DNA from: Promethearchaeota archaeon
Lineage (GTDB): Archaea; Asgardarchaeota; Lokiarchaeia; Sigyniarchaeales; SOKP01
Assembly (NCBI GenBank): GCA_004524535.1
Contig: SDNY01000046.1
Span: 1-26,770, forward strand
Length of the DNA stretch: 26,770 bases
Direction: 5' to 3'
Below, piece after piece: positions 25,420-26,770 of the stretch (its first letter is position 1; each line of letters starts with the position of its first letter). Position numbers and translations under genes: made by a program. The notes under the pieces are model-generated. The model worked only from the letters and a program-made list of their open reading frames with translations, was not told where the DNA came from and ran no database searches.

Positions 25420-26770
25420 ATGATTGAAAATACTTTGGCTGTTATTGGGCTAAGTTGGGGAGATAAAATATCTGAAAACAGATTTTACCCTAGATGAAGG
25501 CAAAGGTAAGTTTGTCGATTTCTTAGCCCAAAAAGCAGATATAGTCGTTCGTTATGCTGGTGGAAGCAATGCGGGTCATTAAAATAAATCTCTTCGATTT
25601 TCTAGGCTAAACGGTTGTTGCCAACGGCATTAAGTATAAGTTTAAATTGATTCCATCTGGTGCTCCATTGGAGAAAGAGGTTGTTATAGCAAATGGATGC
25701 GTAGTAGATCCAGTTGTCCTGCTTGAAGAAATAGAAAACTTAAAAAACTTGAATAAGCAAGTCAATTTAAAACTAAGTAGCACAGCACACATTATTTTCC
25801 CATTCCAACGTGTTTTAGACGGATTAGAGGAAGAAGCGAAGGGAAAACATGCTGCTGGAACAACAAAAAGAGGTATAGGCCCCACATACTCTGATAAGGC
25901 CGCTCGTTGGGGAATTAGAGTCTATGATTTAATTAATCCTGATTTATTAAGACTAAAATTAATGAAATTATTTGAGCTAAAGAAGGCTCTTATTAAATCA
26001 TTCGATCCCGAATGGGATATGGATTTTGATATTCTTTTTGAAGAATATAAGACATATGGTGATATATTAAAACCTTACGTAATTGACACGGCATATTATT
26101 TGAATAAAGCGATAGATTCCGGAAAAAAAGTAGTTTTCGAAGGTGCCCAAGGTACTTTATTGGGGATAGATCACGGTATGTATCCCTATGGAACGAGCTC
26201 AAATGCAAACGCACTTGGAATATCTGCGGGCACGGGAGTTCCTTCTAAAAAAATTGGTAAAATTATTGGAATTGTCAAAGCTTACACATCAAGAGTTGGG
26301 GGAGGCTTATTTCCAACTGAGTTAACAAATACAATAGCAGAAAAAATCCGAGAACAAGGAAAAGAGTACGGTACAGTAACAGGTAGACCGAGAAGAGTAG
26401 GATGGTTGGATCTCTTTAATATCAAATATTCGATTATGATAAATGGTGTGGATAGTATTATTATCACACTTTTAGATGCTTTAGAAGGCATTAATCCACT
26501 AAAAATTTGTACGGCATATGAATTAGAGGGAAAGATTCTTGAGAGTTGGCCCATCCAATCAGAGATAATAGAAAAATGTATACCCATATATAAAACTTTT
26601 GACGGGTGGGAACAAAAAACTAGTGAAGAATGGTCTGAAATAGCAAAACAAGGTTATGATGCATTGCCTTTAACAATGAAAACATACATTCAATTTATAA
26701 AAGATGAACTTCAAACAGAAATCGCAATGATCTCAATTGGACCAGACAGGAATGACACAATAGTATTGGA
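25420..26770 (+). CDS. purA: Adenylosuccinate synthetase with two introns; exons 25420-25462, 25494-25579, 25611 to beyond the window end
   Basis: Joined product [60 protein letters not shown]...[14 protein letters not shown]...FEGAQG.LL.IDHG.YPY.TSS...[13 protein letters not shown]...[16 protein letters not shown]; exon 3 is open to the window end. Confidence 0.93.
25463..25493 (+). other. purA intron 1, 31 nt, BHB-like
   Basis: GGGG-AG^A-UAAAAUAUCUG-AAAA-CAGAUUUUA-CCCU-AG^A; removal gives TGG GGA GAT GAA GGC (WGDEG). Confidence 0.88.
25580..25610 (+). other. purA intron 2, 31 nt, BHB-like
   Basis: AGCAAUGCG-GGUC-AU^U-AAAAUAAAUC-UCUUC-GAUUUUCUA-GGCU-AA^A-CGGUUGUU; removal gives GGT CAT ACG GTT (GHTV). 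Confidence 0.85.

Follow-up and report, generated by a model that had tools for sequence, protein, structure and literature searches.

The closest described system to the purA element analyzed here is the BHB intron in the cbf5 pre-mRNA of Crenarchaeota (Desulfurococcales and Sulfolobales; Watanabe, 2002; Yoshinari, 2006; Yokobori, 2009). Both are small introns within a coding sequence that display a BHB or relaxed BHB motif, and both kinds of host possess a hetero-oligomeric EndA, judged for the purA host from its genes. Both introns are patchily distributed, lineage-specific loss having been inferred for cbf5, and in both cases there are copies that keep the reading frame, i.e., those of 33 and 39 bp in cbf5 and those of 30 nt in purA, the latter containing in-frame stops. 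In contrast to cbf5, which functions in RNA modification and carries its intron in Crenarchaeota, purA is a gene of purine biosynthesis and its intron occurs in Asgard archaea (Promethearchaeota), where it is confined to a single family, has undergone at least 8-11 changes of state on the gene tree and is accompanied by either of two alternative exon-exon helices. Also unlike cbf5, the purA gene of the window described below contains a second intron. Splicing of cbf5 was demonstrated experimentally according to these papers, whereas splicing of purA is what we infer here.

As far as the accessible parts of the sources describe them, the non-canonical tRNA introns of Asgard archaea and Thermoproteales resemble the purA intron in size range, in the logic by which the exons supply half of the motif, and in the enzymes presumed to act on them. 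The purA intron differs from them in residing in an mRNA devoid of a tRNA scaffold, with exon halves that are protein-coding and constrained by their codons. A further mRNA substrate of an archaeal splicing endonuclease is, in the accessible part of the report, HVO_1309 of Haloferax volcanii (Schwarz et al., 2020, PMC7714728), where the BHB intron is located in the 5' UTR, so that the reading frame is not at stake as it is in purA. Before HVO_1309, cbf5 was the sole other BHB case reported outside tRNA and rRNA, according to the same part of that article (PMC7714728).

Eukaryotic HAC1/XBP1 splicing, which is a regulatory switch, works in a way similar to that proposed for purA. There, Ire1 cuts at two small stem-loops in the mRNA and the exons are ligated by RtcB or Trl1, removal of the 26-nt intron of XBP1 changing the frame. 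Ire1 is unrelated to EndA and no family kinship is claimed. The searchable full texts, a scope that excludes subscription journals and supplements, describe a BHB intron neither for purA nor for any other protein-coding gene of Asgard archaea. Within this literature, endonuclease-type splicing inside a coding sequence is reported solely for cbf5, and purA would be an added case.

Anatomy of the purA gene and its two inserts

The window, i.e., the whole stretch of 26,770 nucleotides that was analyzed, corresponds to contig C126 in an archaeal genome bin of 3.66 Mb (G000; 198 contigs, estimated to be 99% complete), and the nearest named relatives of its purA belong to MAGs designated "Promethearchaeota archaeon", i.e., to Asgard archaea of the Loki type. 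The gene is encoded on the + strand, as are all its features described in the following. Exon 1 (25420-25462) opens with the ATG at 25420 (Met1) and comprises 14 codons plus G25462, with which the Asp codon of the GDEGKG motif begins; its N-terminus agrees with those of intronless relatives. Exon 2 (25494-25579) begins at A25494, where the gene resumes as AU GAA GGC AAA GGU with the last two bases of the Asp codon, and extends through the His of NAGH, covering positions 9-38 of PF00709. Exon 3 (25611-26770) leaves the window, and its last 49 amino acids overlap contig C5. PF00709 matches exon 3 (447.7 bits) and exon 2 (44.2 bits) separately, and purA is single-copy in this genome, the sole further match to PF00709 being the contig-end overlap.

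When the two inserts are taken out, both the GDEGKG P-loop and the NAGH motif are present in purA, and the doubly spliced frame continues without a stop for 429 amino acids to the end of the window. Over this length it shares 84.4% identity (362/429) with the PurA of the sister genome G008, which is encoded without interruption and in turn matches PurA chains in the PDB down to E 2.1e-120, and the original prediction of an intact downstream purA therefore stands. Without splicing, the frame meets TGA at 25495-25497, which is codon 26. Residue 7 of the G008 protein aligns with residue 2 of chain 1ade_A and the GDEGKG Asp therefore corresponds to position 13, which agrees with the earlier claim that the insert lies in the codon matching Asp13 of E. 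coli PurA, which we take to be a catalytic residue. The His of NAGH aligns by position with E. coli His41, whose role we assume in the same way.

Intron 1 (25463-25493, 31 nt, BHB type) interrupts the Asp codon in phase 1 and is the sole clean insertion at that place in comparison with the intronless sister G008; BLAST puts the gap at 25463-25491 because AGAT occurs at both borders (25461-25464 and 25492-25495). The 5' strand of the central helix is the exonic GGGG of the Trp-Gly codons (25457-25460) and pairs with the intronic CCCU (25488-25491), giving 4 bp including one G-U. The trinucleotide AGA follows on the 3' side of each strand (25461-25463 and 25492-25494). Between these elements, the intron folds into a 9-bp hairpin with a tetraloop (inner helix h', 25464-25487; 25464-25467 with 25484-25487 and 25470-25474 with 25479-25483; loop AAAA), which is part of the minimum-energy fold. 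All of these elements can be read directly from the DNA as they were first described. The 96-nt context of intron 1 folds at -28.2 kcal/mol (z = -3.26), a value reached by 2 of 200 shuffles. Both bulges had originally been given as AGA, and in the minimum-energy fold this is true of the 5' bulge, whereas the 3' bulge has its first two bases paired there with U25455-U25456. The 3' bulge would thus form solely in the BHB conformer, making the predicted motif relaxed on that side and dependent on an enzyme that tolerates such motifs. Intron 1 is recovered exactly by a strict BHB filter that asks for a helix of 4 bp, at least 3 of them Watson-Crick, for bulges of 3 nt and for an inner helix of 4 bp; over the genome the filter matches 134,099 of 2 x 3,664,620 x 53 position-length combinations, i.e., 3.5e-4.

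Immediately beside the 3' bulge of intron 1 there is almost no pairing in the window, and the exon-exon helix had been called weak. This holds for the adjacent helix of the window, but a distal helix is complete in all eight pairs and tracks the intron. Its 5' arm GGGCUAAG (25447-25454) lies in the Gly-Leu-Ser codons and its 3' arm CUUAGCCC (25521-25528) in exon 2. The distal helix closes a three-way junction rather than a plain helix, leaving an excursion of 26 nt.

Intron 2 (25580-25610, 31 nt) follows directly after the His codon of NAGH. Its central helix is GGUC/GGCU, the predicted cuts fall 2 nt 3' of each strand, and its fold includes a strong, interrupted exon-exon helix of 15 bp. It is absent from all 28 other loci bearing intron 1. 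The likeness between introns 1 and 2 is not significant, their global score of 2.0 being equalled by 5.6% of shuffles and 4.4% of random genomic 31-mers. In a search of the genome for further copies of either intron, only the self-matches were significant, and a loose pattern shared by the two gave about 19 chance matches.

A mobile cassette beside purA was considered and rejected: positions 22046-26770 are collinear with G008 at 90% identity, the two introns being the only clean insertions of about 30 nt, and no nuclease families were found among the purA neighbours scanned. The divergently oriented neighbour of purA (24369-25292, - strand) weakly matches the GIFT domain (PF23355, E 1.7e-9) of IFT52, a protein of eukaryotic intraflagellar transport, as well as DUF4350 and the ABC_transp_aux family. 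Farther away, an archaeal RNase P RNA is encoded at 1122-1448 of the window (- strand; RF00373, 119 bits), and region 17255-17343 differs from G008 by five small insertions of 5-15 nt, unlike the clean purA inserts of about 30 nt. This cluster is situated in the spacer that separates an ORF with its end at 16874 from one with its start at 17459.

Occurrence, structural conservation and boundaries in relatives

The genomes compared are all metagenome bins. Among 30 purA loci of relatives examined first, two other genera have a 30-nt insert at the same site, with hairpin sequences that differ. For a wider survey, Trp-Gly-G codons were sought at a spacing of 22-52 nt from Glu-Gly-Lys-Gly-Lys codons, a pattern blind to inserts outside this range and to genes in which Tyr or Phe replaces Trp (eight such genes were seen, all intronless). 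In 160 genomes of the class it gave 36 matches, 30 of which are purA inserts, whereas the reversed pattern gave a single match in the same genomes; five of the six other matches were checked and are not purA. All 30 inserts, which are 30-32 nt long and lie at the same site of purA, belong to one family (f1), distributed over its genera as 1/9 in the genus of the window, 2/6 in g6, 18/54 in g11, and 9/42 in g2. In 239 further genomes of the phylum, four matches were obtained: two show no similarity to purA, and those of G297 and G301, outside f1, have by eye an intronless GDEGKG and a chance match upstream. By this pattern search, then, no insert at the site of intron 1 was found in 265 genomes of the phylum outside f1. 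Within f1, the site is occupied in 30 cases, intronless in 86, masked in 1, and without a usable purA N-terminus in 17. Each of the 86 intronless rows in which the motif was matched has the Asp.

A quick maximum-likelihood tree was built from the 374-amino-acid region of exon 3 (122 rows, LG+G4); being a gene tree, it cannot separate gain from loss. It requires at least 11 changes of intron state, 8 of them forced by starred branches, whereas shuffled labels average 26. The nearest relative of the window, G008 (85% identical), is intronless. Some side observations concern individual purA loci of these genomes. The gene L023 (G019:C73) is intronless at the Asp site and lacks residues from about 53 to 118, owing to an internal deletion or a misassembly. 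G078, a member of g11, has two full-length intronless copies of purA (C26 and C55) in different clades of the gene tree, of which contamination, a mixture of strains or transfer may be the cause. Recombination of the 5' region between lineages was considered for the purA genes L037 and L038, which are 0.88 identical over 154 nt of that region vs 0.76 in exon 3, a stretch too short for a decision; in this comparison the row of the window is not valid, as it still contained intron 2.

Two frame-breaking inserts in one gene of a metagenome bin, from both of which relatives of the same genus are free, would also be expected of a pseudogene or of an assembly or sequencing artefact, with no functional PurA made from this locus. 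However, the identical stretch is found at a depth of 51.5 in the probable source run, a 157-nt contig of another study spans intron 1 (depth 2.2), and intron 2 occurs in contigs of two other studies with 2-3 substitutions. As the purA inserts are thus seen in independent contigs of three studies, they are no assembly error. Also, the only copy of purA in a nearly complete genome would have to be the defective one. The other intron-bearing genes are intact as well: removal of the predicted intron yields a frame that measures 422-423 amino acids from the Trp codon onwards in each of the 28 other loci, compared with 421-427 for intronless purA, and without splicing a stop comes within 3-13 codons in all 29 intron-bearing loci. 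Purifying selection is indicated by dN/dS, which is 0.06-0.16 in six pairs of intron-bearing genes; comparison of the window with its intronless sister gives 0.16, and in three pairs of intronless genes the ratio is 0.12-0.13. A dead or artefactual locus is therefore highly improbable.

The 157-nt contig differs from the window at 13 of the 31 intron positions (10 substitutions, 2 deletions, and a 2-nt insertion). Ten listed substitutions and all indels fall inside 25463-25493, one of the 11 differences being unlisted, and the exon flanks (48 and 78 bases) show no listed difference. A contig of a third study shares the 3' part. Such a strain-level variant may have arisen by replacement of the intron or through intron evolution that is very fast.

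There are 26 different sequences among the 30 inserts, and in an alignment of the region (A1; 30 rows, 29 of them distinct, all from f1) the structure of the insert is conserved and its sequence is not. In the central helix (A1 pairs 16-51, 17-50, 18-49, and 19-48), 98.3% of cells are paired, with one mismatch in each of two sequences, and at the four anchored pairs of the inner helix 89.5% of cells are paired, with compensatory changes at all four. Overall pairing amounts to 81%, compared with 49-55% or 56-62% (two computations) when partners are slid by one column. The covariation score was reached by none of 500 shuffles, controls that do not fully remove the effect of relatedness.

On the exon side, most genes of g11 pair the Ser-Trp codons (CUUUCGU) directly with the Asp-Glu-Gly codons (ACGAAGG) in an adjacent 7-bp helix. 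This helix and the distal one are mutually exclusive, synonymous codon choice setting which of them can form. The distal helix is complete (8/8) in 14 of 29 intron-bearing rows vs 2 of 86 intronless rows, and a full exon-exon helix of either kind (distal 8/8 or adjacent 7/7) is found in 26 of 29 vs 4 of 86. Of eight phylogenetically independent pairs taken from the gene tree, about six have the helix together with the intron and none shows the reverse (median p 0.03). Six of the seven pairs of the adjacent helix (A1 columns 9-15 and 54-60) already exist in 36 of the 86 intronless rows, so that the amino acid sequence pre-forms half of the motif, and we think that this explains the location of the intron in the Asp codon. 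The four intronless rows with a full exon-exon helix are possible cases of recent precise intron loss.

Placement of the intron boundary had been thought to depend on BHB geometry only, and the AGAT at both borders to be a trace of insertion. Neither view holds in g11. In 17 genomes of g11, TGGGGAG is followed by C, T or G at the start of the intron and exon 2 opens with AC, so the sole join giving Asp is G|AC and the DNA contains no contiguous GAY codon. Coding alone thus fixes the boundary in these genomes, independently of geometry, and at the same place, since on either strand the G|AC join is offset from the central helix by two bases in the 3' direction, exactly where cuts in a BHB motif are predicted. 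The cuts implied by geometry coincide with the junction defined by coding in 30 of 30 sequences, uniquely so in the 17. These 17 introns have no repeat at their borders, and those of eight g2 and two g6 genomes share AT or GAT only. A target-site duplication is ruled out by the g11 borders, and the AGAT of the window would appear to be a coincidence of bulge sequences.

The same genomes bear on the idea that the ribosome hops from GAU at 25462-25464 to GAU at 25493-25495 without any RNA splicing, as in the translational bypass of phage T4 gene 60. The window by itself would suit such bypassing, the AGAT repeat providing identical take-off and landing codons with a hairpin between them and a stop soon after. 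The 17 g11 genomes have neither a matching pair of codons nor a contiguous Asp codon, which excludes hopping there, and the conserved 4-bp helix, the symmetric 2-nt offsets and the compensatory changes in the stem correspond to the requirements of EndA, not to those of hopping. For the family as a whole we regard bypassing as hardly credible. From its sequence and that of its relatives, we are confident that 25463-25493 represents a genuine archaeal BHB (splicing-endonuclease) intron in the coding sequence of the single purA gene.

Predicted machinery and mechanism of splicing

The genome encodes two EndA paralogues, recognized as PF01974 matches of 107.9 and 70.7 bits. The one on contig C100 keeps the Tyr/His/Lys residues and aligns end to end with the catalytic subunit of A. 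pernix (residues 21-201 with 3p1z_B, E 7.6e-37), whereas in the one on C84 a Ser occupies the position of the catalytic His of M. jannaschii. An RtcB is encoded on C101 (561 bits, E 1.5e-168). In earlier work, Asgard EndA is described as an (alpha-beta)2 enzyme with an L1 insert that confers broad specificity (PMC5829648; bioRxiv 10.64898/2026.10.13.758758). An endonuclease of broad specificity had been expected from the relaxed motif, and at the sequence level the set of two paralogues fits an (alpha-beta)2 enzyme of the kind described there (PMC5829648). Of the only 22 tRNA genes that ARAGORN predicts in this genome, 13 have introns, and for two of these introns the length predicted is implausible; many tRNA genes are probably too interrupted for detection. 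This result agrees with the heavily interrupted tRNA genes of Asgard archaea described in the accessible parts of two reports (PMC11291895; bioRxiv 10.64898/2026.10.13.758758).

In the proposed mechanism, the exonic GGGG of the Trp-Gly codons would pair in the pre-mRNA with the intronic CCCU, the intron hairpin stacking on one side of this central helix and the exon-exon helix, here the distal GGGCUAAG/CUUAGCCC, closing the other. The putative (alpha-beta)2 EndA would then cut each strand two bases beyond the central helix in the 3' direction, i.e., after G25462 and after G25493, and RtcB would ligate the exons, restoring the Asp codon (G + AU) and an open PurA frame of at least 429 amino acids. 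Cutting and joining in vivo is something we infer from anatomy, conservation, covariation, boundaries, selection and the presence of the enzyme genes; on these grounds, intron 1 is very probably removed by EndA and RtcB. The location in a catalytic codon probably follows from the RNA context and not from enzyme function, because TGG-GGN gives an invariant GGGG and because the Ser-Trp and Asp-Glu-Gly codons are naturally complementary.

The insert might instead be removed from the RNA by other means, for instance by another endonuclease or a self-cleaving element, or it might be lost at the DNA level in part of the population, and the relaxed 3' side in the fold of the window would be compatible with this. 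However, the signature of EndA is a pair of cut sites that lie, on either strand, 2 nt to the 3' side of a 4-bp helix, and intron 2 displays this arrangement likewise. We know of no self-splicing intron as short as 31 nt. Against removal from DNA, the joined form occurs in none of the contigs, from which rare forms could escape. Altogether, we give such other machinery a slight chance, and splicing by EndA and RtcB is the reading followed below.

Possible intron turnover and significance

The whole genome was also scanned for BHB motifs whose removal merges ORFs. From thresholds of 15/25 up to 100/100 codons, matches fell from 16,404 to 212, compared with 16,633/16,663 to 226/241 in frame-shifted controls. 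There is thus no excess over the controls in a screen that has no power to detect a few introns. A more far-reaching reading is that the purA intron belongs to a population of actively turning-over mini-introns in protein genes of Asgard archaea, which would come and go repeatedly, by gain, replacement or precise loss, at "proto-splice sites" supplied by invariant codons of catalytic motifs. The at least 8-11 changes of state, the strain variant, the lineage-unique intron 2 and the 36 of 86 half-formed helices are pointers in this direction. We consider this reading doubtful at present.

Archaeal protein-coding genes are normally treated as uninterrupted, and gene callers will truncate or miss purA, a core metabolic gene, in the 30 Asgard species that carry the intron. 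In the lineage nearest to eukaryotes, the machinery that splices tRNAs appears to act on mRNAs as well. As translation starts just 43 nt upstream of intron 1, splicing must compete with ribosomes in a cell that has no nucleus. With orthologs that possess or lack the intron, two solutions for the exon helix and two introns in one gene, purA offers a system in which the origin, persistence and loss of introns can be tested. If the reading of ongoing turnover were true, the closest prokaryotic relatives of eukaryotes would show continuing gain and loss of mRNA introns by way of tRNA-splicing enzymes.
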